The notes beneath the pieces are model-generated. The model was not told the DNA's origin and did no database searches. It saw nothing but the letters and a program-made list of their open reading frames with translations. Positions 1,669-50,030 of a stretch of 64,000 nucleotides of DNA are shown piece by piece. Numbering within the stretch: the stretch's first letter is position 1; every line of letters starts with the position of its first letter. Position numbers and translations under genes: made by a program. This DNA is from Escherichia phage Mt1B1_P17: sequence record NC_052662.1, one strand, 5' to 3'.

Positions 1669-1697
1669 TTGAAACCTCTTAAAAACAGATATCCCAT

Positions 1698-1736
1698 AAA
1701 TCTTAGTCTACAGGATATTTGTTGTTTTGTCAATAG
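1698..1736 (-). promoter_or_regulatory. sigma70-like promoter (TTGACA, 17 nt spacer, TAGACT) for the 1189..1668 gene
   Basis: plus-strand ttgtcaatag at 1727..1736 reads CTATTGACAA on the minus strand; one of four copies of this motif in the window. Confidence 0.45.
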
Positions 1737-1761
1737 AAAAATTAAAAAATATTAAATATTT

Positions 1762-3327
1762 TTAATTCGACAGGTTTTGTGCTGAAGGATCTAAAGCAGA
1801 AACAGTATCAGATGTTCCAGTTCCCGCTGTAGCTAAACCATCTCCTGATCGTGAAGTTTTGTCAGGCATATAGTTATCCATGAATTCAAAGAATTTCTCT
1901 TTATTGGCAACAATATCATCAGGGATGCGATATTCAAAACCAATTTTTTCAAGAAACTCGTTAATAACTTCTGGGGTTAAAGGTATTGCACCAGAGGCTA
2001 CCAACTGCTGAATAGCTTTAGCATTTACTTCAATATCAGGATCACCCATTTCACCACTGACAAACTTAGGCATATCTTCATCAGAAAGGAAGATATTGTT
2101 TAGTCGTAGTGTTTGAGGGATCAGTTGAGAGTTTATAGCTTCTACAACAATATCTACATCTCGCTCAATAAAATGAGACAATAGTGTTTGTTTGTTGTCA
2201 GAAAGCGCAAAACTTCCTGCGTCACCATCACCCATAATCAACACACCCGCACCAAAGCGGTTATAAATATCCAGTTTACGTTGTTTGATTAGTGCTTGAG
2301 TGTCAAACTGTTTACCCGTGCCATCAACACCTTGGAATACAAGATCGTATTGACGCATCACTGTGCCTTCATAAACGTCTGAAGGCAACACCATGTAGGC
2401 TTGCTCACCAGAGTGCAGGTTAGCGATGTTGGCTTGGAGAACTCGAAGAGATTGTGCTTCATCCCCCGCAGGATCTAAAGATGCCCTGTTTAGAATGTCA
2501 CTTGGAACCTTAAGAACTGGCATACCGCCTAAATCTTTAGATACCCCAATAACCTCAAATTCCTGAATAAGAGATTTTTCACGCCAGCTACGATATACAG
2601 CTAAAAGCGGACTAACTCCTAATGGGTTATTCTCTGTAATGTTGCTACCAACAAATAAAACTTTACTGAAAGGAATTTCTTTAATACCCGTTTCTAAAGT
2701 TGTATTACCTGGAGCTAACATCGTATTGGTGATATTCTGGTTAACAGATAGAATAGAACGTCCGTCTGCCGAATATGTAAAAGGTTGAGCCATGTGAAGA
2801 GTGTCTTGTGGTCTAAAAGCCAGTTTGGTTAATCGCCAATACCCAAAGTAAGGACTTTTAGGGTCTTCATCCAACTCATAAACTTTCTCTGCGAATGCAA
2901 AACCGTATTGCTTATATGTCAAAAGTGATCTAACATATTGACGTAGAGGGGCTTGCATATTGCGCAACATGTAATCAATAAACTTAGCAGCTTTTCTTGA
3001 CTTTGCCGAGTTTACATTGTATTTTATCTTGAAATCAAAGAATGCTCTATCTACAAAGATATATGTAGCGTCAAGAGCAGTAGCTACATCAGGGTCTTCA
3101 CCCATCTCTTTAAAAGTGCGAATACATTCTGGGAAACGAGTCTCATAAGGTTGCATGAAATTCGTAAATGCTTTGATTGAGTTTAATCCGATCGTTCCTA
3201 TTTCAGGTGACAGGAGTAACGTTTTCTCTTTCTCTGCCTCTTTTGTTGGAGAGAGAGCAGCTTTATTTGCAGCACCTTTGTCCCAGTATTCTGACTTTTT
3301 AGTGTACGTTCTTTTTCCTGTTGACAC
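1762..3327 (-). CDS. putative portal protein
   Basis: 521 aa ORF immediately downstream of the large terminase on the same strand; size and position typical of a portal; no diagnostic motif read. Confidence 0.45.
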   Translation of the reverse strand: MSTGKRTYTKKSEYWDKGAANKAALSPTKEAEKEKTLLLSPEIGTIGLNSIKAFTNFMQPYETRFPECIRTFKEMGEDPDVATALDATYIFVDRAFFDFKIKYNVNSAKSRKAAKFIDYMLRNMQAPLRQYVRSLLTYKQYGFAFAEKVYELDEDPKSPYFGYWRLTKLAFRPQDTLHMAQPFTYSADGRSILSVNQNITNTMLAPGNTTLETGIKEIPFSKVLFVGSNITENNPLGVSPLLAVYRSWREKSLIQEFEVIGVSKDLGGMPVLKVPSDILNRASLDPAGDEAQSLRVLQANIANLHSGEQAYMVLPSDVYEGTVMRQYDLVFQGVDGTGKQFDTQALIKQRKLDIYNRFGAGVLIMGDGDAGSFALSDNKQTLLSHFIERDVDIVVEAINSQLIPQTLRLNNIFLSDEDMPKFVSGEMGDPDIEVNAKAIQQLVASGAIPLTPEVINEFLEKIGFEYRIPDDIVANKEKFFEFMDNYMPDKTSRSGDGLATAGTGTSDTVSALDPSAQNLSN

Positions 3328-3428
3328 TTGTTCCTCCAGTCAGGTATAAAATCGTTAAGGCAAGGCTGTATTATATACAACCTCACCTATCTAGTTATAA
3401 TACACTTTAAAGTGACTTTTGTCAACAA

Positions 3429-5504
3429 TTATCTTTTACGGACACTATACGGTTGGTGAAATCCGCTGTTCATTCTACTGTATCCTGTAGGAGCATTTGT
3501 TGTTGTAGGGATAGCTACTGCTTTGAAAGTATTCTCTTTTGACAGAGTATTAAAACAAGAGGCAGCAGCATCGGGAATGTCATCTTTAATAGTGGCTGTA
3601 GATCTTTCACCATTGAAAGATTCCAATTCTTTATAAAAGTGGGTTAAAGTTTCCACATTAGGGAAAGAATCTTCAACAATATAAACAAAACCGTTTTGAC
3701 ACGCACTACTAAAAGGCATAAAACGCTGAAGCTTTTTCTTGTTACCTGGCATAGCATCTGGTTTAACAACAAAACCTTCTAGAATAAGTTTCTTTGCAGA
3801 CTCTGTGTATTCTATTGTCCCAGCACCAGATGGGTCTTTAGGAAGCACTACTGTAACTTCTGGTCCATCAATCTTACATTGATTTAGAATCAGGTTATCC
3901 CTTTCCCCAGGTAGTCTTCGAAACCTTCCGAAAATTTTACTTTTCTCATCCACAGCATCATAATCATAGTCGCCAAAGATGTAGATATTACCATCTTGAT
4001 CTTTACCCATTTTGACAGATGTTGTATAGTCTGGATAACGGTAAGTTTCTGTAGGAACTGAAACAGCTTTATCCCATGCTCGCATTAGTTTAAGATTGTT
4101 AGGAACATCTTTATAAGATATTTTATGTAACCATTCACGTTGAAAGAAAGATTCTTTCTGGATACGTGCAAACCAACAACCGTCCAGAAGCTGTGCTCTT
4201 TTGATAGCTGTTTGTGATTTAAGCTGTGCTAAGTAATTAGGGTTAAGCCTAATGAGTTCTGGGTTATCAAATATTGTCCCACCAATAAATACGAAAGTTT
4301 GTGGTTCAATAACAACTGTCTCCCCTGTATTAGGGTTTTCCATGAAACAGTTTTCTGGATATTTTTCTTTCAGTTCTTCAGGTGTGTCAGCAAAAACAGG
4401 TTCATCGTTAACAATGATGAAATATTTTTGTTTACCACACATATCTTCTCTAGGATAACCACCCTCATCAAGATAAGGTAACACCCAATTCAAAACCCAA
4501 CTATCTGCGTCAGGGTTACATGTGCACAACATGAAACTTGTTTCTGACTCTGAACGCATACGTCCCAGAAGATAGAGCATTTCATATTGTGTGAAGTGGG
4601 TTAACTCGTCAAAACCTACCATTGAATACTGTGTACCCTGATGGTTTGTTTCTGCTGTTACGTTATCATTTTCCAAATGGTCAAATTTGAGGGTTCCACC
4701 ACCAGTGGCTTCAAAAATGATATCCATTGTACTTTCTTTTACGTGTGGTTGTAAAGGAAGATACAAACGTTTTGCTTCTGTAAACAGACCACCTGGTTTA
4801 CGGTGAGCAGTGGTGTTCTTACGGAAAAGTATTCCACCAAACAAAGGGTCTTTGTAGGCGTATTTTAAAGCTTTCAGCAATAGCAGACGAGACTTGCCGC
4901 TATTCCCAGTAACGAAGCAGTGATCGCCACGTCTAAAGACAATATAGCTGCTTGGAGTCTCAAAACAATATTTCTTATCATCTGTTGAAATAACCTCGTG
5001 TATTTTTAAGTAAGTGCTCTTTTTACCAGGTATGTTAAAAGGAACACGTTTACCGAATGGATTTTCTACATAACCTTGCAGGGGTTTTCCTATTTGCTGT
5101 AATGCAATAAGATCTCCTACAAGAATCTCGAAATGTTTCTTTGATTTCTTTTTCTTATAGAATACAAAACGGTGTTCCATACTAAGTTCTTGGAATAATC
5201 CTACACCATTTGTTATTCTGTATAGGTTATCTCCATTTAAATCGTATTCTACAAAATAAGGTGTTACCAATTCTAAACGCTTATTCTTAGGATTGTATTG
5301 GTAAATATCCTCTCCCGAATATTCACTAATCTGCCTCCAACCATCTTTTGTAAGATATTCCGTTTCAGCAGAAACACATCCAGCGGCACCACCATAAATC
5401 ATAACTTCTGGCATTAAATCCATTGCAAGAGTCTGTTTACCTGGTTGAGCCTTTACCTCAATATCTACTCCAGCTAAACTACCTGCTGCCTTTTTCTTTG
5501 CCAC
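3429..5504 (-). CDS. terminase large subunit (ATPase plus nuclease), interrupted by an in-frame mini-intein
   Basis: 691 aa; Walker B-like VGFDELTHF, LCTCNP motif; P-loop is split as GGAAG / intein / SGKS, which rejoins to GGAAGSGKS. Confidence 0.85.
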   Translation of the reverse strand: MAKKKAAGSLAGVDIEVKAQPGKQTLAMDLMPEVMIYGGAAGCVSAETEYLTKDGWRQISEYSGEDIYQYNPKNKRLELVTPYFVEYDLNGDNLYRITNGVGLFQELSMEHRFVFYKKKKSKKHFEILVGDLIALQQIGKPLQGYVENPFGKRVPFNIPGKKSTYLKIHEVISTDDKKYCFETPSSYIVFRRGDHCFVTGNSGKSRLLLLKALKYAYKDPLFGGILFRKNTTAHRKPGGLFTEAKRLYLPLQPHVKESTMDIIFEATGGGTLKFDHLENDNVTAETNHQGTQYSMVGFDELTHFTQYEMLYLLGRMRSESETSFMLCTCNPDADSWVLNWVLPYLDEGGYPREDMCGKQKYFIIVNDEPVFADTPEELKEKYPENCFMENPNTGETVVIEPQTFVFIGGTIFDNPELIRLNPNYLAQLKSQTAIKRAQLLDGCWFARIQKESFFQREWLHKISYKDVPNNLKLMRAWDKAVSVPTETYRYPDYTTSVKMGKDQDGNIYIFGDYDYDAVDEKSKIFGRFRRLPGERDNLILNQCKIDGPEVTVVLPKDPSGAGTIEYTESAKKLILEGFVVKPDAMPGNKKKLQRFMPFSSACQNGFVYIVEDSFPNVETLTHFYKELESFNGERSTATIKDDIPDAAASCFNTLSKENTFKAVAIPTTTNAPTGYSRMNSGFHQPYSVRKR
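4902..5378 (-). mobile_element. mini-intein (Hint domain, about 159 aa, no endonuclease domain) inside the terminase P-loop
   Basis: residues 43-201: starts CVSAETEYLTKDGW (block A-like), internal SMEH (block B-like), ends ...HCFVTGN followed by Ser +1; excision restores the Walker A motif. Confidence 0.7.
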
Positions 5505-5513
5505 ATTCCCTCC

Positions 5514-5858
5514 TTATTCAGCAATAATACCTTTTTCTTGCAGTGTTTTAATATATGTTTGTAAACCTAAAACCTTTCGTCTATCTTGCTCCCAAAGAGC
5601 ATTGTTTTGAGTTTGGTTGTTAACAACTTCAGATCTACTAACCCCTCTTGCAATTTGATTTTTAGTGTATGGCACAGGTGTCGATACTTTATCCATCAAG
5701 TCCGAATCTGGACCTTTAACCTTTTCTATGGCTACAGCCTTACACTCATCAATAAGAACTGGGGAAACTTTTGTTGATGATGAACAACCCGTCATCATTA
5801 GGGGCAAAGCAAGACATACTGCCAGAATTAGTTTTTGCATAATTCGTTGTATCCTCAT
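5514..5858 (-). CDS. putative o-spanin (outer-membrane lipoprotein, Rz1-like)
   Basis: 114 aa; signal peptide with lipobox LMMTGC; its start is embedded out of frame in the 3' end of the upstream i-spanin-like ORF. Confidence 0.5.
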   Translation of the reverse strand: MRIQRIMQKLILAVCLALPLMMTGCSSSTKVSPVLIDECKAVAIEKVKGPDSDLMDKVSTPVPYTKNQIARGVSRSEVVNNQTQNNALWEQDRRKVLGLQTYIKTLQEKGIIAE

Positions 5859-6141
5859 TGATCGTTTGTTTCTTCTTCTCTAAATCTGCTTTTAATTGTG
5901 CATTGTTTTTAGACAAGTTGTTTATTTGAGTATTTAATAATGCTCTTTCTTCGTCTGCTCTTTTTTGAAGAACATCAAAATCTTGTTTTGCTTTTGCTTG
6001 GGCTGCTTGATATACTTGCGTTTGATAGGCAACACCATCTTTGTAGCCAGACTCACGTATCTTGTTATAAGCAAACATTCCGGCAAGAATAAGAACAACA
6101 ATTAAAACAAAACTTAATACAGTTTTAGTCTTTAGATTCAT
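5749..6141 (-). CDS. putative i-spanin (Rz-like)
   Basis: 130 aa; N-terminal transmembrane helix (LSFVLIVVLILAGMFAY) followed by a coiled-coil region; overlaps the lipoprotein ORF. Confidence 0.5.
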   Translation of the reverse strand: MNLKTKTVLSFVLIVVLILAGMFAYNKIRESGYKDGVAYQTQVYQAAQAKAKQDFDVLQKRADEERALLNTQINNLSKNNAQLKADLEKKKQTINEDTTNYAKTNSGSMSCFAPNDDGLFIINKSFPSSY

Positions 6142-6191
6142 TATCTTCTACTTCCTCATAAAATTTTATTTTAGGAAGAGAAGGGGCGTTG

Positions 6192-6362
6192 TTAACTATC
6201 TTCTTCACTTCCATCGGTTGAGCCTCCGCTAGGATCTCTTCCCAAGTCTTCTCTGTCATCATAAAGTTCTTCCTCTAAGTTCCAAGCCCGTGTGTAATCA
6301 TTCTTTTTATCTTTATGATAAGAAGAACGGTTAAAATCATTTTTAACTACAAAATTGCGCAT
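6192..6362 (-). CDS. small acidic hypothetical protein (56 aa)
   Basis: ATG preceded by GAGGAGG; below the 60 aa cutoff of the ORF track. Confidence 0.3.
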   Translation of the reverse strand: MRNFVVKNDFNRSSYHKDKKNDYTRAWNLEEELYDDREDLGRDPSGGSTDGSEEDS

Positions 6363-6420
6363 ATTTTATCCTCCTCATATCTGATCTTATCACAAAATGA
6401 TATATAATTGCAAGCATTAA

Positions 6421-6455
6421 AAATAAAAAAGCCCCTAACCTTTCGGAGAGGGGTG
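6421..6455 (-). terminator. Rho-independent terminator after the 6503..6799 gene
   Basis: GC-rich hairpin (GCCCCTAACC...GGAGAGGGG) followed on the minus strand by a T-run (plus aaataaaaaa); second small hairpin GGGGCAAAGCCCC at 6475..6487. Confidence 0.55.
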
Positions 6456-6502
6456 TTAAAAATAACAAGGAGGAGGGGCAAAGCCCCAAGAGAGGAGAGG
6501 GA

Positions 6503-6799
6503 TTAGATTACGATCTTTTTAGGAACGTCATCTGTATTCTGCACGGCAGGGGTTTCTTCTTCCATAGCTTCATAATGTTCTTCTAACCATTCTTCTACTT
6601 GCTCTTTAATAGCTTTAGCTGCTTGGAAGCGGAGAGGTTTTGCTGCATCCTTATCATTAACAAGTTCAACAATATACCGCATAGCTTCTAAATAATGCTC
6701 TGCAAATAATTCTTTTACACTTGCTTGCGCCGCATCCATTGCGTAAATCTGTTGCATTTCGGCTGTTGGTCTTCCACGACCACGTTTTAGTTTAGGCAT
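6503..6799 (-). CDS. hypothetical protein with basic N-terminus (KRGRGRP)
   Basis: 98 aa ORF; AT-hook-like basic motif; could be a small DNA-binding protein, function unknown. Confidence 0.5.
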   Translation of the reverse strand: MPKLKRGRGRPTAEMQQIYAMDAAQASVKELFAEHYLEAMRYIVELVNDKDAAKPLRFQAAKAIKEQVEEWLEEHYEAMEEETPAVQNTDDVPKKIVI

Positions 6800-7006
6800 A
6801 ATAAAATCCTCCTAAACTTTATCTTAACATATAAAAAATAATAAGTCAAGTTTTATTCAATAGATAGCAAAAAGCCTCCAATAAGGAGGCTAATAAATAC
6901 TGTTAATTTGAAATGCTTTATTATAATTGTGCGTTAAGGAGTCGCACCCCTCCATCTTAGAAGGAACCAGGCAAGGTCTTCAAAGATACCGCTGGCAAGC
7001 GATATT

Positions 7007-7085
7007 TGGAGGCGGGAATTGGATTTGAACCAATGATCTCCAGCATATGAAACTGGCGAGGACGACCAGACTCCTCTATCCCGCT
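7007..7085 (-). tRNA. tRNA-Met (anticodon CAT; could also be Ile-lysidine or initiator)
   Basis: cloverleaf read by hand: anticodon stem CCAGT/GCTGG, loop TTCATAT, T-arm ATTGG-TTCAAAT-CCAAT, CCA encoded; position 1-72 mismatched. Confidence 0.7.
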
Positions 7086-7091
7086 ATTAGG

Positions 7092-7161
7092 TATCCCGTG
7101 CTGGATTCGAACCAGCATCACAATAAGTTGTGGAACTCTTATCCTGTAAGTCTAACGGGAA
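7092..7161 (-). tRNA. atypical tRNA-like element (possible pseudo-tRNA)
   Basis: perfect T-arm GCTGG-TTCGAAT-CCAGC and 6/7 bp acceptor stem, but only about 70 nt and no canonical anticodon arm could be folded. Confidence 0.3.
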
Positions 7162-7163
7162 AT

Positions 7164-7237
7164 TGGTTGTTTCGACAAGAATCGAACTTGTGTCTCACGA
7201 TTATCAGTCGTGGGTTCTACCATTGAACTACGAAACA
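7164..7237 (-). tRNA. tRNA-Ile (anticodon GAT)
   Basis: acceptor TGTTTCG/CGAAACA, D-arm GTTC..GAAC, anticodon stem CACGA/TCGTG with loop CTGATAA, T-loop TTCGATT, CCA encoded. Confidence 0.8.
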
Positions 7238-7243
7238 TTAAAT

Positions 7244-7320
7244 TGGTCGGAATTGCAGGATTCGAACCTGCGACCCTACGCTCCCAAAGCGTATGCTCTA
7301 CCAAACTGAGCTAAATTCCG
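7244..7320 (-). tRNA. tRNA-Pro (anticodon TGG)
   Basis: acceptor CGGAATT/AATTCCG, D-arm GCTC..GAGC, anticodon stem TACGC/GCGTA with loop TTTGGGA, T-arm GCAGG-TTCGAAT-CCTGC, CCA encoded. Confidence 0.8.
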
Positions 7321-7325
7321 TTATA

Positions 7326-7401
7326 TGGCTGGTCTGTCTGGATTTGAACCAAACCTACGACAGTCAAAGTGTCGTGTGCTACCTGACTACACTACAAACC
7401 A
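7326..7401 (-). tRNA. tRNA-Gln (anticodon TTG)
   Basis: acceptor TGGTTTG/CAGACCA (one G-U pair), anticodon stem CGACA/TGTCG with loop CTTTGAC, T-loop TTCAAAT, CCA encoded. Confidence 0.7.
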
Positions 7402-7499
7402 ATAAATCATTTAATGAAGGGCAACCAGAAGAGGTGTGAGAGAAGGAGAAAACCATGAGTAAAAGAGAAAGTTTTCTGGCAACCCTTTATTAAATAATT

Positions 7500-7573
7500 T
7501 GGAGCGTTCTACGAGGATCGAACTCGTGCCGCCGACTTGGAAGGACGGAATGCTACCGCTACACCAAGAACGC
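7500..7573 (-). tRNA. tRNA-Gly (anticodon TCC), tentative
   Basis: acceptor GCGTTCT/AGAACGC, T-arm ACGAG-TTCGATC-CTCGT, anticodon loop CTTCCAA with one T-T mismatch in the stem, CCA encoded. Confidence 0.55.
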
Positions 7574-7584
7574 CCTACCTCTTT

Positions 7585-7613
7585 ACTATACTACATTTTA
7601 CTATTGGTTGTCA
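7585..7613 (-). promoter_or_regulatory. sigma70-like promoter (TTGACA, 17 nt spacer, TATAGT) reading into the tRNA sub-cluster
   Basis: CTATTGACAA motif copy on the minus strand, about 35 nt upstream of the tRNA-Gly 5' end. Confidence 0.5.
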
Positions 7614-7887
7614 ATAGTTTTATTGAGTGGGACAGTGACGAGTATCCCATTGGGTGACTAGCCCTACGTTCGGTAAGCTAACTTAAAATAATACAAAACC
7701 AAAGTCAAATATTATTCTTCGTTGCTGTCGATGGGAGAGCCGCTTCTTCTTTTGCCCCATCCAACCCTACTCCGGTCAAGTTTCAGGTAACTCTTTTTGT
7801 GATCAACACAATACTAAGAACACTGTCTTTCGAGCAGACCTTGTGCACAGGATACGACGATCAATCACAGTGCTCTTAATGTTGTGT

Positions 7888-7962
7888 TGGTGCTCCCACT
7901 CTGAATCGAACAGAGATCCACGGATTACAAAACCGTTGTAATAGCCATTATACTATAGGAGC
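7888..7962 (-). tRNA. tRNA-Thr (anticodon TGT), tentative
   Basis: acceptor GCTCCTA/TGGGAGC, T-arm CTCTG-TTCGATT-CAGAG, anticodon loop TTTGTAA on a 4 bp stem with one U-U pair, CCA encoded. Confidence 0.5.
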
Positions 7963-7968
7963 AAAGCT

Positions 7969-8045
7969 GGGACTCGGCAGGATTCGATACCTGCAATTCC
8001 AGAAGCCTCTTGGCGACTGGGGGTTTACCTTAACTCTACAAGTCC
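7969..8045 (-). tRNA. atypical tRNA-like element with 8-nt T-loop
   Basis: 7 bp acceptor stem (GGACTTG/CGAGTCC) and T-arm GCAGG-TATCGAAT-CCTGC, but the central region folds as an extended hairpin, not a canonical anticodon arm; no CCA. Confidence 0.3.
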
Positions 8046-8052
8046 ATAATTC

Positions 8053-8138
8053 TGGCGATGAGTATAGGATTTGAACCTATATCGTTCTTTCGAACACGGA
8101 TTAACAGTCCGCCGCTTAAACCATTCAGCCAACTCATC
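8053..8138 (-). tRNA. type II (long variable arm) tRNA, anticodon loop reads GTT
   Basis: acceptor GATGAGT/ACTCATC, anticodon stem GCGGA/TCCGT with loop CTGTTAA, 15-nt variable arm hairpin GTTCGAAAGAAC, T-arm ATAGG-TTCAAAT-CCTAT, CCA encoded. Confidence 0.5.
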
Positions 8139-8144
8139 TTAATT

Positions 8145-8232
8145 TGGTGGTGAGTGATGGAGTCGAACCACCCGAATCGCAATGATAACAGATTTACAGT
8201 CTGCCCCGCTACCCCTACGGAATTAACTCACC
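8145..8232 (-). tRNA. tRNA-Tyr (anticodon GTA), type II
   Basis: acceptor GGTGAGT/ACTCACC, anticodon stem GCAGA/TCTGT with loop CTGTAAA, long variable arm, T-arm GGTGG-TTCGACT-CCATC, CCA encoded. Confidence 0.7.
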
Positions 8233-8362
8233 TAAATACTAATATTTAAATTCTTTTTAAAATAGCCAGTGTTCACACCACTAACTATGAGTTATCGGTA
8301 AGATGGTGGAGGCCATCTGCCGAAAGTTTACTCTATTAAAGTAAGCTATATTAAAAAGAACT

Positions 8363-8448
8363 TGGCGGTAGATGTAGGACTCGAACCTACACGCCGTTTC
8401 CGACTACAGTTTAGCAAACTGTCGTGGCTACCATTTCACCAATCTACC
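8363..8448 (-). tRNA. tRNA-Ser (anticodon GCT), type II
   Basis: acceptor GGTAGAT/ATCTACC, anticodon stem ACAGT/ACTGT with loop TTGCTAA, long variable arm, T-arm GTAGG-TTCGAGT-CCTAC, CCA encoded. Confidence 0.8.
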
Positions 8449-8452
8449 AATC

Positions 8453-8543
8453 TGGCGGAAGGAGGGAGAGTCGAACTCCCAAGGCTCTTTCAAGCTCGGC
8501 GGTTTTCAAGACCGTTTTCGTCGCCACGTCGATTTGCCCTTCC
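8453..8543 (-). tRNA. tRNA-Ser (anticodon TGA), type II
   Basis: acceptor GGAAGGG/TCCTTCC, anticodon loop CTTGAAA, long variable arm, T-arm GGGAG-TTCGACT-CTCCC, CCA encoded. Confidence 0.7.
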
Positions 8544-8551
8544 ATACTTAT

Positions 8552-8580
8552 AATCTAACATAAAATAATGTTAGTTGTCA
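8552..8580 (-). promoter_or_regulatory. sigma70-like promoter (TTGACA, 17 nt spacer, TAGATT) upstream of the tRNA-Ser pair
   Basis: third copy of the CTATTGACAA motif on the minus strand. Confidence 0.4.
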
Positions 8581-8777
8581 ATAGTTTTTTAAAACATTTT
8601 ACCATGAATGGTGACTCCACCAACCCCCGTTCTCAACGAACGGTGCTCTTCGAGCATTTATGTCTTCTAATATAACCGTGGCCTTTGTTTATAATGTCTG
8701 ACATACTTGCCTCATTCTCTGCCACCATGATCAGTAGTGGGTTCAAATCACTTGAGCTAATTCATGTTAAAATGTTC

Positions 8778-8852
8778 TGGTGTCTTTACAAGGAATCGAA
8801 CCTTGACTAAGAGTTTAGAAGACTCCTGTGCTATCCATTACACCATAAAGAC
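8778..8852 (-). tRNA. tRNA-Arg (anticodon TCT)
   Basis: acceptor GTCTTTA/TAAAGAC, D-arm GTGT..CAC, anticodon stem GGAGT/ACTCT with loop CTTCTAA, T-arm CAAGG-TTCGATT-CCTTG, CCA encoded. Confidence 0.8.
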
Positions 8853-8854
8853 GT

Positions 8855-8929
8855 TGGTGGCCCTGGCTGGTTTCGATCCAGCTACCTATCGGTTATGAGC
8901 CGACAGCTCTCCCATTGAGCTACAGGGCC
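8855..8929 (-). tRNA. tRNA-Met (anticodon CAT; second CAT tRNA)
   Basis: perfect acceptor GGCCCTG/CAGGGCC, D-arm GCTC..GAGC, anticodon stem GTCGG/CCGAT with loop CTCATAA, T-loop ATCGAAA, CCA encoded. Confidence 0.7.
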
Positions 8930-9133
8930 ATAAATGTGGTAACAGAGACGCTGACGATTGTAGAGAACCGCTACATTCTCTAAGACCAAGCCCAACTTTC
9001 AGCGTAAAAGTTCTTGAGCCGAGACTATTCCTTTTCCTCTTTGGTAGCTAACCTCTGAAGAAGTAGTCTCTAACACTACCGCAGTGCAAGCCCCTCTTAA
9101 CAAAAGTCAACGACCCTGTTACCACACTTGATG

Positions 9134-9167
9134 AACGTATCCTAACATATGAAGGATACGTTTGTCA
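9134..9167 (-). promoter_or_regulatory. promoter-like TTGACA box overlapping a 9-bp inverted repeat (possible operator)
   Basis: fourth CTATTGACAA copy (plus 9162..9167); downstream element is the palindrome AACGTATCC-N11-GGATACGTT (9134..9162); -10 is weak. Confidence 0.35.
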
Positions 9168-9175
9168 ATAGTTAT

Positions 9176-9490
9176 TTAAGCATATTCTGTTACTTCTTCA
9201 CTATCTTTCTTTTCTAGAAGAGCAACAACCAAAGCTTCTGCGTTAAAAGTATTAATTTCAAGATCCATCTCTCGCATCAGAGCCAAGAAATCAATAACTT
9301 TAACATCTTTAGTGATTACAATAGAAGTTGTACCATTGTTTTCAGATGTGTATTTTTCTGGATGGAAAAGAAAAACTGCATTGCCGTTACCATCTTCAAA
9401 CACGTGTTTTTCTAATAGAGACATTGTTCCTCCTAATCTGTTAGTTGTTCGTCCTCTACCAAGTTTGACACGAGAACGTCTGTTATACAT
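9176..9490 (-). CDS. hypothetical protein
   Basis: 104 aa ORF, first gene of the leftward unit upstream of the tRNA cluster. Confidence 0.5.
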   Translation of the reverse strand: MYNRRSRVKLGRGRTTNRLGGTMSLLEKHVFEDGNGNAVFLFHPEKYTSENNGTTSIVITKDVKVIDFLALMREMDLEINTFNAEALVVALLEKKDSEEVTEYA

Positions 9491-9684
9491 TGATGCTGAT
9501 AAACCCTTTCGGGACTATCATCAAAAGCCAAACCTGTGCAAATAGAACAGAGGTCTGATTCCTTGATGACTCCATTTTTATCACGTCTGGAGTGGTTTGT
9601 CAAATGCCTATTACAAGCACGGCACCTAAAATAAAAGCTATTTTGCATATATCCTTCGAACCCCAAATGGGGAGTGATCGGCAT
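9433..9684 (-). CDS. hypothetical Cys-rich protein (CxxC ... CxxC)
   Basis: 83 aa ORF overlapping the downstream ORF by 58 nt; true start may be internal. Confidence 0.3.
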   Translation of the reverse strand: MPITPHLGFEGYMQNSFYFRCRACNRHLTNHSRRDKNGVIKESDLCSICTGLAFDDSPERVYQHQCITDVLVSNLVEDEQLTD

Positions 9685-9721
9685 CTCCTCACTTCTAGTT
9701 TAGCACGAAGGATATCTTAAG

Positions 9722-9907
9722 TCAACTAGGAATAATTTTATCCTTTTTGGTTTCATAACCAGTCCAATCTAAATCCTCCCAGCCTTCATCATCGTCTAAC
9801 ACATTGTCATCATCATAAGATGCAATGTTATAAATAGAACGTGGATTACAAGACATACAATCTTTAATAGGCACATGATGCCATTTGCACGGATTCTCGC
9901 TAATCAT
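9722..9907 (-). CDS. hypothetical small Cys-containing protein
   Basis: 61 aa ORF; a TATAAATA box (plus tatttata at about 9972..9979) lies about 65 nt upstream on the minus strand. Confidence 0.45.
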   Translation of the reverse strand: MISENPCKWHHVPIKDCMSCNPRSIYNIASYDDDNVLDDDEGWEDLDWTGYETKKDKIIPS

Positions 9908-9949: not shown

Positions 9950-10140
9950 ATACTGATCTATAGATCAAGTATTATTTATAATAATTTATTATTTTATTTT
10001 TAATTGATAGAAGTTGATCTGTACGTACCAGTTCTGATACACTGTACCTGTTTGTTAGATCTAATAATTATTTATTATTAATATTTAATAATTATTAATC
10101 TAGTACAGAGTACAGTACTTGAGTACAGAGTACTACATCA
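9950..10140. repeat. AT-rich divergent intergenic region with palindromes and short direct repeats
   Basis: palindrome TGATCTATAGATCA, a roughly 45-bp AT-rich imperfect inverted repeat centred near 10075, and AGTACAG x3 with AGTACT palindromes at 10101..10135. Confidence 0.5.
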
Positions 10141-10388
10141 ACAACCTAAAACCTTAACTCGCTGCGCTCGTTAATAGATTTCTAGGGTAGCATACTTCGA
10201 ACACAAAAGTCAAGAGTTTTATTAAAAATTATTTTCTGTGTGCAAAAACCTTGCTTAAACAGGTAGCAATAGTATATCCTATAACATAAGCTTCATAAGA
10301 GGCTCGTAGAGCAAGTTCACTTACTAGGTAAGGTGATTTATCATCTTATATATAAAAAGTGCGTCAGAGACGCGTTTAGGAGGCTAGA

Positions 10389-46632: not shown

Positions 46633-47078
46633 GATTGAGTTCCTTTTTGTTTTTCAATAGCTGCACGAATTTCTGCTAAAGGTTCTGCTACCAAGTCTTC
46701 AACTTCTTGGATTTGTTCATTCATCACATCACGAACCATTTGAATACGCTCTTCAAGGGAAACAGCAAGTTCATCTGCATAAGCCATATTAAGAACGTGG
46801 TAGAAATTTTCTTGTGCACTTAAAGCACCAGATAACAAATAATCCTGATCTTCCTCTGGTAAAAGCATGTGTTGCTCATATTCAGCAAAAGTGTTTTTGT
46901 TAATCTCAAGCAAAGCACCCATCATAACATCATACTGATAATCTTTATGACCAGGGTTGTTTAAAATAACATCTTCAAAGATATTAAGAAGAATCTTAGT
47001 AACAAAAGCATTGTTTTCGGCACCTTCCATCTGACGGATTACCGTGATTACTTCTTTTTCTTTAGCGTTTTGGCTCAT
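46629..47078 (-). CDS. hypothetical protein
   Basis: 149 aa. Confidence 0.5.
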   Translation of the reverse strand: MSQNAKEKEVITVIRQMEGAENNAFVTKILLNIFEDVILNNPGHKDYQYDVMMGALLEINKNTFAEYEQHMLLPEEDQDYLLSGALSAQENFYHVLNMAYADELAVSLEERIQMVRDVMNEQIQEVEDLVAEPLAEIRAAIEKQKGTQS

Positions 47079-47268
47079 AGTGTTTCTCCTCTGATTCTAT
47101 TTGGATATAACCTGTGGTTTTGCACGGGTTACACTCGTAAATTTGACCTACGTCCGCCATAACATATCCTGCACCACCACAATAGGGGCAAGGCATAGGA
47201 GGACAAGGTATGGACGTAGTGATTGTTACGACATTATCAATTTCCAACATTTTCGCCATTATTACCAT
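47062..47268 (-). CDS. small zinc-ribbon protein
   Basis: 68 aa; CPPMPCPYCGG ... CNPCKTTG. Confidence 0.45.
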   Translation of the reverse strand: MVIMAKMLEIDNVVTITTSIPCPPMPCPYCGGAGYVMADVGQIYECNPCKTTGYIQIESEEKHYEPKR

Positions 47269-47510
47269 TCCGCTATTAACGTCAAACCAAGTGCATCGTT
47301 AAAACGCTCAACATTTGAGTATAGGTATGGAGGGGTTATTTGCTCTAAAATTTGTGCTGCTTCCACTTGGTGTTCTATGTTTTGAGAAGTTCGGGCATAA
47401 ACTAAGACACCCATTTTATTCAAAATAAAAACAGAATCAGACCCATCCAGCTTATCAACGGCTGCATACATTTTAGTCATATCTTCTCCTGGATTACCAT
47501 TCAGCAACAA
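47262..47510 (-). CDS. hypothetical protein
   Basis: 82 aa. Confidence 0.45.
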   Translation of the reverse strand: MLLNGNPGEDMTKMYAAVDKLDGSDSVFILNKMGVLVYARTSQNIEHQVEAAQILEQITPPYLYSNVERFNDALGLTLIAEW

Positions 47511-47709
47511 GACTAGGATTCATAGCAAAAGCTTTGAAAGTTGTTATGTCATGACTAACATTAAAACTAACACCTTTTACTTTCTCTAGTATTTGAACTT
47601 TTGTCTCTCCGTCCCACGGTAGTATGATAACACCATCTCCTGTGATCAACCACCAATGGTTCTCTCCATCTCGTGAATCTTTTGCTTTGTATAGAAAATT
47701 GGAACTCAT
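47494..47709 (-). CDS. hypothetical protein
   Basis: 71 aa. Confidence 0.45.
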   Translation of the reverse strand: MSSNFLYKAKDSRDGENHWWLITGDGVIILPWDGETKVQILEKVKGVSFNVSHDITTFKAFAMNPSLVAEW

Positions 47710-47829
47710 TCTTCCTCCTGTTCGGTATTATTCACCTGTGAGACACAATGTAACACAAGCTTTGTGAGTTTGTCAAGGATCTAATTACATTCTACAGAAG
47801 AAGAGGGTTAATAACTATAGGAATAGTCT

Positions 47830-47900
47830 TACTATAGGTGCAATACTAGTTAAGACTTAGATTGATAGGTAAGACTTATCTTAAACAGATAATTGATAGG
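47830..47900. repeat. short direct repeats in an intergenic region
   Basis: ATTGATAGGT at 47861 and 47891, TAAGACTTA at 47851 and 47871, related CTATAGGT at 47832. Confidence 0.45.
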
Positions 47901-47988
47901 TGAATCAGCATTGACTTTTTCAAAAAAATATGGTACCCTAAACATATGTTTACGAGCGATAGCGAGTAGTAGATTTCTATATAATAAT

Positions 47989-48022
47989 GTTTCATGTTAC
48001 TCACGATAGTGAGGTATGAAAC
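47989..48022 (-). terminator. nested-palindrome hairpin, likely terminator of the 48070..48279 gene
   Basis: GTTTCAT-GTTACTCAC-GATA-GTGAGG-TATGAAAC, followed on the minus strand by an AT-rich tail. Confidence 0.45.
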
Positions 48023-48069
48023 GTAAGTGAAGGTAGATAAACTATGATCATCTATCTACCATCTATTAA

Positions 48070-48279
48070 TCAATATAGATCTAATGTTAGACTAACAGTT
48101 ATCCAACAAACAATAGCAGTCCATATAACAAGTAATGATCTACAAACTACATCCCATTCAAATACATTGTATGTTAACCATTCTCCCATCACAACAGAAG
48201 AACCCAACCAACATCCAACAACAACTATAATCCAATAAAAGAATCCTACAGTAGAGTATACAGCAAAAGCTTTTAACAT
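48070..48279 (-). CDS. small membrane protein (two predicted transmembrane helices)
   Basis: 69 aa; hydrophobic segments FYWIIVVVGCWLGSSVV and LLVIWTAIVCWITV. Confidence 0.4.
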   Translation of the reverse strand: MLKAFAVYSTVGFFYWIIVVVGCWLGSSVVMGEWLTYNVFEWDVVCRSLLVIWTAIVCWITVSLTLDLY

Positions 48280-48692
48280 CTTTCCTCCAGAAGTTGTTCA
48301 ACAGTTTGACGAGTATGATTGTCCCAGTAAACCTTAGTGAAGTCAAGAGTTCCTTGTTCGTTTCTCTTAGTTTCGAAGAAGTATCCGCCTTCTCTTTCTA
48401 CTCTGTCTCTAATGTGCTCTATAAGGTGCTTTTTACAAGATGCTGATAAACAATAGTCATACTCCCCACGAAGCAATGCTATAGCTGCAAGTCTGTTATC
48501 ACCAACTTGAGATATTGTCCAAGAAAGCATACTACCTTCTATACCTAAAGGTGTTTGTCGAATGGAATATCCACCATGCCGACTGATAGAAATTATGGCA
48601 AGTGGTTCTCCTGTTAGGGATCTTCCTAATGCACCTTCTGTTGGACTTCCTTCAATAACACGTTTGAAAAAAGCTTTGATCTTACCTAACAT
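48273..48692 (-). CDS. hypothetical protein
   Basis: 139 aa. Confidence 0.5.
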   Translation of the reverse strand: MLGKIKAFFKRVIEGSPTEGALGRSLTGEPLAIISISRHGGYSIRQTPLGIEGSMLSWTISQVGDNRLAAIALLRGEYDYCLSASCKKHLIEHIRDRVEREGGYFFETKRNEQGTLDFTKVYWDNHTRQTVEQLLEERC

Positions 48693-48711
48693 AAGTCCCC
48701 CCCTTAAAAAC

Positions 48712-48846
48712 TTACTTGTTTAAAGTATCTCTTACTTGTTCTGCTTGACGTTTAGTAATAAAAGTCCCAACCGAAACGTTAAATTCATTGACTACAGAGA
48801 ACGATCCATCACGATTCTCACGAATATTAAACAATTTCTTACTCAT
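48712..48846 (-). CDS. small hypothetical protein (44 aa)
   Basis: ATG after GGAGG; below ORF-track cutoff. Confidence 0.35.
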   Translation of the reverse strand: MSKKLFNIRENRDGSFSVVNEFNVSVGTFITKRQAEQVRDTLNK

Positions 48847-49042
48847 TTCTACCTCCTTCGATGCTTTGTGCCGTACCATCCCAAGCCATTAGAATATTTG
48901 CCAATAGTTCACGAGGCTCTTTAAACCAAACTTCCATTTCATCAAGAATCTCGTCCGTGTCGTAAGTATAACCTGGAACACCAAGTTCGCATTTCTTAAG
49001 ATAGCTTTCTAACCAGCGGTGATAATTCTTAACCCCATTCAT
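48839..49042 (-). CDS. hypothetical protein
   Basis: 67 aa. Confidence 0.45.
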   Translation of the reverse strand: MNGVKNYHRWLESYLKKCELGVPGYTYDTDEILDEMEVWFKEPRELLANILMAWDGTAQSIEGGRNE

Positions 49043-49415
49043 ACTGTGCTACCTTTTCTTTTACCCAATCTACACGATCTTTATCATAATGTTGAGTGCC
49101 AAGGAAAAGACCATTGTGGAAACTTTCCTCACCGAAAGGATAAATTGGATCTAAACCATCTTCTTCAAACAACATTTTTAATCGATTTGATGTAGATTTC
49201 TTAGTTTCTGAGTTGTAGTTTGTGGTTATAAGCCAATCTTCCAAACAACGACACAAACCTTGACGAGAATCCCAAGGAAAAACACAATCTCCGATAGGAG
49301 CTTGTTCCGCCCATTTCAACCAGCCTTTAAAAAAGTTATACAGTATATAGTCTTCAGTGTAATACATTATCTCCTCCTTTACGTATACAATAACACCCCG
49401 AAGAACGGGGTGCAA
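49029..49415 (-). CDS. paralog family A member (divergent)
   Basis: 128 aa; shares F-x-x-W-L ... GLC ... PF ... R-V-x-WVKEK with six other ORFs. Confidence 0.5.
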   Translation of the reverse strand: MHPVLRGVIVYVKEEIMYYTEDYILYNFFKGWLKWAEQAPIGDCVFPWDSRQGLCRCLEDWLITTNYNSETKKSTSNRLKMLFEEDGLDPIYPFGEESFHNGLFLGTQHYDKDRVDWVKEKVAQYEWG

Positions 49416-49418
49416 CTG

Positions 49419-50030
49419 TTATTTAATCTGTTTAAAAATTTCGTTTGGAACGGTACCGTTTAAAATACCTTCTACGATCTCTTGTGCAGACGTGTAAGAG
49501 AGTCCAAAAGAAGCTACGCCTAAAATTGCCTCCTTCAAAGGATCTGGCAGGGGTTCAAAATTACCTGCAACAAAGCCACCTGCACAAGCAGCGCCTTCAT
49601 CATCCCAGAAAACAACTGCTACATCGTTACCATGCGAAGTTGTGCGATGTGCAATAACTTCAACTTCGGTGCCTTCTTTAGGAACAGAATAAGAACTGTC
49701 CCAAGAATATCTTTCCAAATCAGGAACAAAGATAACCTTTTCACCTACTGGCGGCAGTTCACAACGATAATACCAAGAATTTTTTTCGTTCATTGTTTTA
49801 TTTTCCTCCACGTCTTCAAAAGTAACGATCCAATCGTAGCCGTAAGAAAACGGATATTTTAGATCTAAAGAATAAGTTTGACCTAGATCGTCCTCAACAA
49901 GAACCATCCTGTCAAAGTTTGCGATGTTAGGATTATGTTTAATGATAGGGTATGTTTCCCCTACAGTAAATTGTCCCAAATGGTAAAGTTCATCTCTCCA
50001 AGTAATTTGGATATGAGTGCATTGAATCAT
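49419..50030 (-). CDS. hypothetical protein
   Basis: 203 aa. Confidence 0.5.
   Translation of the reverse strand: MIQCTHIQITWRDELYHLGQFTVGETYPIIKHNPNIANFDRMVLVEDDLGQTYSLDLKYPFSYGYDWIVTFEDVEENKTMNEKNSWYYRCELPPVGEKVIFVPDLERYSWDSSYSVPKEGTEVEVIAHRTTSHGNDVAVVFWDDEGAACAGGFVAGNFEPLPDPLKEAILGVASFGLSYTSAQEIVEGILNGTVPNEIFKQIK

Follow-up and report, generated by a model that had tools for sequence, protein, structure and literature searches.

In the tRNA cluster of phage T4, the tRNA genes are interspersed with stable RNAs (species 1 and 2) of obscure function, and the cluster is transcribed by the host polymerase. Its RNAs are presumably excised by RNase P and other host RNases. ROOL and GOLLD are large structured RNAs found beside phage tRNA arrays, and their function is obscure as well. 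A tRNA array is also present in the 64-kilobase (kb) stretch of Escherichia phage Mt1B1_P17 (NC_052662.1) analysed here, the whole of which is called the window. The subject of the analysis is a 10-mer, TTGTCAATAG on the plus strand and CTATTGACAA on the minus strand, which occurs three times in this array and once among the head genes. Judging from the sequence, the four 10-mers are probably the -35 regions of four promoters used by the host RNA polymerase with sigma-70. The array resembles the T4 cluster in mixing tRNAs with small RNAs, while having at least three predicted internal promoters and more non-tRNA elements; the two are likened by arrangement only. Elements E1 to E6 lie within or beside the tRNA array as ROOL and GOLLD do, but E1 and E2 are only about 200 nucleotides (nt) long and have no match in Rfam.

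Host-type promoters spread over the genome, structural region included, are shared by this phage with other large E. coli myoviruses. In the related rV5 group, sigma-70-like promoters have been predicted genome-wide, also at structural and late genes, and 11 of the 33 have an extended -10 (PMC3606486). Nine promoters are annotated in ASO2A (MZ726793, PMC10612097). The occurrence of host-type promoters throughout the rV5 genome, late genes included, agrees with the presence of one in the window's head module. Over its first 12 kb the window shares 99% identity with Phapecoctavirus genomes, among them ESCO37, anhysbys and ASO2A. Phapecoctavirus comprises phAPEC8-like E. coli myoviruses of the Stephanstirmvirinae; the window is a segment of such a genome, and 286 GenBank phage records match its 12-kb region. 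Comparisons were made with 150 kb of the 151.7-kb ASO2A record (GenBank MZ726793), with phi92 (Justusliebigvirus, L006), and with phiWec188 (L023) and the IMG/VR contig L008, both about 80% identical to the window array. Further IMG/VR and metagenomic lineages (L007-L012, L035-L042) were included, in which a neighbouring protein of 98 amino acids is 59-85% identical.

The 10-mer TTGTCAATAG is present on the plus strand at 1727, 7608, 8575 and 9162, as the first-pass annotation had reported, and these are its sole copies in the window. Its expected count is 0.23, and none of 100 dinucleotide shuffles reached four. The examined part of ASO2A holds just the four equivalent copies, all non-coding and all on one strand, that of the tRNA and structural genes. 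On the minus strand every site reads TTGACA, matching the -35 consensus at six of six positions, with starts at 1733, 7614, 8581 and 9168. The three array copies are alike over about 18 nt (repeat family D5), and a search for a longer repeat unit around the 10-mers found none beyond this length.

The predicted promoters have the following layout.

9139 to 9171, minus strand: promoter A; 10-mer 9171-9162, -35 TTGACA 9168-9163, spacer 18 nt, TG 9147-9146, -10 TAGGAT 9144-9139, predicted start about 9132
8552 to 8603, minus strand: promoter B; 10-mer 8584-8575, -35 8581-8576, spacer 18 nt, TG 8560-8559, -10 TAGATT 8557-8552
7585 to 7617, minus strand: promoter C; 10-mer 7617-7608, -35 7614-7609, spacer 18 nt, -10 TATAGT 7590-7585
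1705 to 1736, minus strand: promoter D; 10-mer 1736-1727, -35 1733-1728, spacer 17 nt, -10 TAGACT 1710-1705, predicted start about 1697

The -10-like hexamers named earlier (TAGACT, TATAGT, TAGATT, TAGGAT) are present at the four sites. The 17-nt spacer proposed with them holds at 1733; at 7614, 8581 and 9168 the distance from TTGACA is 18 nt, and 17 is obtained only when counting from the end of the 10-mer. In a consensus scan, the two hexamers together match at 10-11 of 12 positions. The -10 hexamers all have A at position 2 and T at position 6, agree with TATAAT at four or five of six positions, and carry G at the third position at three sites. Sites A (TGTTAGGAT) and B (TGTTAGATT) have an extended -10 (TG at -15/-14), as do the orthologues of B and C in phi92; window sites C and D lack it. 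At the two sites that have it, the TGn motif may compensate for the weak -10. The upstream DNA is A/T-rich at all four sites. At B, a stretch resembling the upstream promoter (UP) element (8603-8585, TAAAATGTTTTAAAAAA) matches 12 of the 14 specified positions of the UP consensus AAAWWTWTTTTNNNAAA (PMC2412878) by hand count; the same count gave only partial A- or T-tracts upstream of A, C and D.

The TTGACA hexamer, the 17-18-nt spacer, A2/T6 in the -10, TG at two sites and the A/T-rich upstream DNA are likewise features of E. coli sigma-70 promoters with TGn and UP elements. Differences from the E. coli consensus are the -10 third-position G and the 18-nt spacer, which is kept in orthologues. 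The four sites are very probably unannotated members of a very well known kind, ordinary sigma-70-type promoters. What the sequence shows directly is the motif with its anatomy, placement and conservation; use by RNA polymerase, start sites, timing and terminator function are inferred.

All four sites are intergenic, co-oriented with their products and located just upstream of them. The placement described in the first-pass annotation was borne out: 8581 precedes tRNA-Ser(TGA), 7614 precedes tRNA-Gly, and 1733 lies between the portal and protease genes, while 9168 is followed by a 200-nt non-tRNA structured RNA (E1) and then by two tRNAs. From the end of the -10 there are 8 nt to tRNA-Ser(TGA), 11 nt to tRNA-Gly and 10 nt to the closing helix of E1. 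Since the -10 ends 8 nt from the first base of tRNA-Ser(TGA), the leader of the primary transcript is predicted to be about 2 bases at most. The -10 of promoter D is 36 nt ahead of the protease start codon. None of the four sites is annotated in the inspected records of ASO2A and anhysbys.

At site B, TTGACAA, the -10 block TGTTAGATT and the upstream AAAA.GTTTTAAAA are invariant in six sequences from three lineages while the spacer varies, and the UP-like element is kept across genera, phi92-like phages included. At site C, seven aligned sequences share TTGACAA and TA.AGT without variation and keep the spacing at 18 nt, each lineage having its own spacer sequence; three further lineages agree. 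Site C orthologues come from the window, L008, phiWec188, phi92-like phages, L007, L009, L035, L036 and L038. The site A orthologue in L008 and phiWec188 retains TTGACAA, together with TGTTAAGAT. The site D region is near-invariant in eight loci whose flanking protease is 63-88% identical; the pattern is TATTGACAA, eight variable bases and then ATATCCTGTAGACTAAGATTTATGGGATATTTGTTTTTA as far as the ribosome-binding site, so that the stretch from -20 through the ribosome-binding site is nearly unchanged. Fixed hexamers, free spacers and a fixed distance to the product are what a functional sigma-70 promoter would predict, and this pattern supports such a function.

Hairpins overlap the predicted promoters A, C and D.

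9128 to 9168, minus strand: inverted repeat enclosing promoter A, UUGA..ACGUAUCCU / AGGAUACGU..UCAA, 14 base pairs (bp)
7600 to 7618, minus strand: hairpin centred on the -35 of promoter C, ACTATTG-ACAAC-CAATAGT, z -2.35
1680 to 1718, minus strand: terminator-like hairpin over promoter D, 12-bp stem 1718-1707 with 1700-1689, loop CUAAGA, tail CUGUUUUUA at 1688-1680

At site A the hairpin covers -35 to +8 (RNA fold -16.2 kcal/mol, z -5.1) and no U-tract follows it. In L008 the counterpart has 16 bp (-17.9, z -6.1) and shows two compensatory changes as well as one G.U pair. The hairpin on the -35 of site C is found in seven of nine lineage variants with differing stems (ACTATTG, AGCCTCTT, AGCCCUUG, AGCCCTTG and TGCTTG) and flank-shuffle p values of 0.001-0.034. 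A hairpin centred on the -35 is not a general property of these promoters, being seen at site C and at site B of L008 only; window site B has a weak hairpin that is not conserved. The site C hairpin may serve in 3'-end protection of the upstream RNA, as an antisense terminator (hairpin and T-run on the plus strand) or as a DNA-level feature. The antisense terminator is the less favoured of these, since its wobble pairs would suit the tRNA-sense strand alone and the vicinity showed no plus-strand gene or promoter.

At site D (RNA fold -13.7 kcal/mol, z -3.4; in L020 z -4.0, with two G.U pairs changed to A-U), the left arm of the hairpin contains the -10 and the right arm contains the predicted start. 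On transcripts that come in from upstream, the hairpin could form and end transcription. Transcripts initiated at D would begin inside the right arm, could not form the stem and would escape. In this way promoter D could start expression of the protease, scaffold-like, decoration and capsid genes afresh. Such an arrangement is a plausible means of expressing the high-copy protease, scaffold-like and capsid genes independently of the low-copy terminase and portal genes. The genes for abundant head proteins would be preceded by a host-type promoter that shares its DNA with a terminator-like hairpin.

Several points weigh against the four sites being promoters. At three sites the -10 hexamer matches the consensus at just four of six positions, and 18 nt is not the optimal spacer length. 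The consensus scan found 31 promoter-like sites in 12 kb as compared with 32.1 in shuffles; a hexamer match alone proves nothing, because shuffled sequence yields as many promoter-like sites. Promoter function does not account for the conserved hairpins over A and C. The D hairpin has three G.U pairs, few G-C pairs and an A/U-rich stem, and the terminator scan did not call it. A literature search found no transcriptome for Phapecoctavirus or Stephanstirmvirinae. The hairpins are also the ground for an improbable alternative, by which the element is conserved chiefly as a hairpin of RNA or single-stranded DNA that protects, processes or terminates the 3' end of the upstream transcript, its likeness to a promoter being secondary or incidental. 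This would suit the enclosure of the whole of site A in a 14-16-bp hairpin with two compensatory changes, the changing stems around the -35 of site C, the 12-bp hairpin with its U-tract at site D, and the G.U pairs appropriate to the tRNA-sense strand. Hairpins constrain pairing rather than sequence; here the stems differ between lineages with TTGACAA and the -10 region unaltered, and window site B has just a weak hairpin that is not kept. The fixed distance to the tRNA 5' ends is a prediction of promoters, and both roles can coexist. The overlapping hairpins are no argument against promoter function, since a need for pairing would not keep TTGACAA and the -10 unchanged; they do show that a second constraint acts on the sites.

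The identity of the four 10-mers, far above chance, could also be explained if CTATTGACAA were bound, as an operator or activator site, by a DNA-binding regulator that the phage encodes, with a regulon of four sites. The likeness of the array copies to about 18 nt and the 7-bp palindrome formed by TTGACAA itself would agree with this. However, the bases of the 10-mer beyond TTGACAA are lost in the nearest diverged relatives and in phi92-like phages, no candidate regulator was identified, and the sites have every part of a sigma-70 promoter, which makes such a regulon very unlikely. There is as little probability that the 10-mers are functionless scars of duplication or recombination between tRNA-array cassettes. 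The tRNA content and order do vary among lineages, in which cassettes are gained and lost, and ASO2A has 88 nt extra between tRNA-Pro and tRNA-Gln. Scars would nevertheless leave unexplained that the likeness ends within about 18 nt with no longer repeat around the copies, that the fourth copy is 6 kb off in the head module, and that different genera retain orthologous sites in which nothing but the promoter elements is conserved.

The sigma-70 promoters favoured here do not form a class defined by the 10-mer. Of the single sigma-70 class proposed in the first-pass annotation, the sigma-70 type stands, with its consensus -35, legal spacer, A2/T6 and conservation in orthologues; a CTATTGACAA-defined class does not, as its CTA flank is not kept. 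L008 and phiWec188 read GTATTGACAAG at site A and GTGTTGACAAT at site B, the CTA prefix being lost in this nearest diverged lineage. At sites B and C, phi92 reads CTACTTGACAAG and CCTCTTGACAAA, respectively, and the site D orthologues read GGTATTGACAAA; TTGACAA alone is common to all compared orthologues. A distinct CTATTGACAA class was ruled out, the extra CTA and A not being kept where the promoters are. By this comparison, the CTA...A flank is peculiar to the close phAPEC8 lineage and is no functional signature. Homogenisation, or a weak preference for these bases at -38 to -36, may be why the four sites of that group share it. Neither the core conserved at site D nor the -10 of TGTTAGATT, each sought elsewhere in the genome as a class signature, recurs. 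Other good TTGACA promoters without CTA are present in the window on the plus strand (21770, 40180) and the minus strand (3425, 54573, 53194, 52726, 51810, 47776), several of them directly after terminator hairpins.

In ASO2A, 63 sites fit the pattern TTGACA-N16-18-TAnnnT. Among the promoters of this genome there is a stereotyped class, TTGACA-N16-TAAGAT-GTATCACATAGGGCGG...CCGCC followed by a ribosome-binding site and ATG, in which the initial transcribed sequence is conserved and a G+C-rich hairpin stands at the predicted 5' end of the transcript. ASO2A contains at least 13 copies of it, at 0.2-4.4 kb, 123.9 kb and 146.9-149.7 kb, in regions of small genes near the ends of the record (L003 240-4352; L005 23975 and 46912-49673). 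The leader hairpins of this class are labelled 'terminators' in MZ726793. The class has no match in the window with up to three mismatches, and the four sites fall outside it, having spacers of 17-18 nt and different downstream sequence. The promoters annotated in ASO2A belong mostly to this class and are in that respect unlike the four sites; the -35 hexamer is identical, and the polymerase is presumably the same. Early use had been suggested for the four sites; should there be an early class that can be told from the sequence, the N16/TAAGAT class would be it.

The tRNA array is 2.3 kb long and contains 12 tRNAs and several small structured RNAs. ARAGORN found 10 of the tRNAs; Rfam and the ASO2A record add tRNA-Tyr (8232-8148) and tRNA-Ser(TGA) (8543-8457). 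Promoters A, B and C would act as internal promoters splitting the array into three units.

Minus strand: unit A (promoter A), with E1, tRNA(CAT), tRNA-Arg and E2
8778 to 8929, minus strand: tRNA(CAT) and tRNA-Arg(TCT); the CAT gene (8855-8929) is Met by ARAGORN and Ile-CAT in the ASO2A record
7888 to 8543 and then E3, minus strand: unit B (promoter B), with tRNA-Ser(TGA) 8543-8457, Ser(GCT), E4, Tyr, Asn, E7, Thr and E3
6895 to 7573, minus strand: unit C (promoter C), with tRNA-Gly, E5, Gln, Pro, Ile, E8, Met and E6
6873 to 6891, minus strand: intrinsic terminator closing the array, AGCCTCC-TTATT-GGAGGCT then TTTTT; a terminator in MZ726793

Promoter A would drive E1, two tRNAs and E2; promoter B would drive seven tRNA or tRNA-like genes from tRNA-Ser(TGA) onward, starting almost exactly at the tRNA-Ser 5' end; and promoter C would drive tRNA-Gly and the remainder up to the terminator at 6891-6873. 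The scan found no canonical terminator between units A, B and C. Read-through between the units is likely because no canonical terminator separates them, and the internal promoters probably add to it. The array would accordingly be read as three promoter-headed units rather than as one operon. The promoter positions, previously unannotated, belong to a widely isolated genus of therapeutic phages and may be useful for engineering and for interpreting future transcriptomes.

The larger value of the promoters may be in what they point to, namely a primary transcript that apparently starts exactly at the 200-nt structured RNA E1. The array is rich in conserved non-tRNA RNAs, and the structured RNAs, the tRNA mimics and the hairpin-embedded promoters are of greater interest than the motif. 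Relatives retain the gaps between the tRNAs, and in several gaps the conservation exceeds that of the neighbouring proteins. A search of 6800-9800 with Rfam 15 (gathering threshold and E up to 10) gave tRNAs and chance-level hits only, leaving the inter-tRNA elements unmatched.

8932 to 9132, minus strand: E1, non-tRNA RNA of about 200 nt; closing helix 9129-9114 with 8947-8932
8588 to 8780, minus strand: E2, structured RNA of about 190 nt, no match in Rfam 15
7620-7888, minus strand: E3, first 135 nt 100% identical in the window, L008 and phiWec188; contains a 22-bp hairpin
8233-8362, minus strand: E4, three hairpins inside an 11-bp closing stem, z -4.1
7402-7500, minus strand: E5, 12-bp stem covarying between lineages, with an invariant pyrimidine-rich loop of about 35 nt (UUUCUCUUUUaCUCAUGGUUUUCUCCUUC)
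6925-7006, minus strand: E6, immediately ahead of the array terminator; identity to eight fetched relatives 80-94% (above 90% except in L009)
7968-8045, minus strand: E7, cloverleaf tRNA mimic with the 4-nt loop AAGA in the 'anticodon' arm
7094-7160, minus strand: E8, cloverleaf tRNA mimic with the 4-nt loop CUUA in the 'anticodon' arm

The 5' end of E1 coincides with the predicted start of promoter A, and its 3' end is 2 nt ahead of the next tRNA. Its minimum free energy is -76.8 kcal/mol (z -5.76), and 12 of its 73 pairs are compensatory among three sequences. E1 was found in Phapecoctavirus-like genomes only; in most of the relatives listed it is without annotation, and in a few it is a 'hypothetical protein'.

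E2 is more widespread. Homologues about 70% identical are found within or beside tRNA arrays in the Seunavirus (Vequintavirinae) phages GAP31, 4MG, KE22, GEC_vB_MG and EspYZU14 and in Klebsiella phage 05F01 (L024 2501-2693, L025 2501-2679, L026-L029). In an alignment of nine sequences (A1), 98.9% of the cells are paired, and 16 of 44 pairs are compensatory as compared with three at most in slid-partner controls. The single-stranded blocks UAGCUCA, ACUGAUCAU, GAGAAUGAG and UCGnAGAG are invariant. Scanning IMG/VR with the core pattern of E2 gave four loci only.

The E5 loop UUUCUCUUUUaCUCAUGGUUUUCUCCUUC resembles the anti-Shine-Dalgarno sequence. A 12-codon open reading frame with a strong ribosome-binding site on the opposite strand (7455-7493) was considered and rejected, as it has a frame-shifting indel between lineages despite the nucleotide conservation. 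E7 and E8 have an acceptor stem and a canonical T-arm, with a tetraloop instead of the anticodon loop. Both keep an identity of 96-99% in relatives with about 80% identity elsewhere, and both were missed by ARAGORN and Rfam.

The sites may be compact dual-purpose modules, in which 30-40 nt serve both as a DNA promoter and as a lineage-covarying hairpin of the read-through RNA (a terminator at D, a 3'-end or processing element at A and C), partitioning an array with at least five unannotated structured RNAs and two tRNA mimics. This proposal is tentative and regarded with some doubt.

On the minus strand, from high to low coordinates, the gene order is small genes, the tRNA array (9.1-6.9 kb), lysis and small genes and the terminase, followed by the portal, an XkdF-type prohead protease, a 371-amino-acid protein, and the decoration and capsid genes.

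5504-3429, minus strand: terminase large subunit
3327-1762, minus strand: portal (Pfam Portal_Mu)
1668-1189, minus strand: XkdF-type prohead serine protease (PF14550, E 1.4e-11)

The product of the 371-codon gene is labelled putative scaffold protein in some relatives. The identification of 1189-1668 as an XkdF-type protease fits its position between the portal gene and this putative scaffold gene. In RefSeq records the same gene is named 'DNA methyltransferase', which is also the name of PHROG 1530, its top PHROG hit.

A strong promoter-like site, TTGACA-17-TATTAT, is located right after the terminase stop codon (3397-3425, minus strand). It is followed by a hairpin (3346-3390, minus strand) that is a terminator in the ASO2A annotation; if the promoter is real, the portal mRNA would carry this hairpin as its 5' leader. 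A divergent intergenic region contains a conserved promoter-like TTGACT-17-TGcTACCCT with A/T-rich upstream DNA (10185-10240, minus strand), which is also present in phiWec188. After it comes a run of short GTACT-containing repeats (10100-10145, minus strand), and anhysbys annotates a repeat_region at 10057-10111 of its locus.

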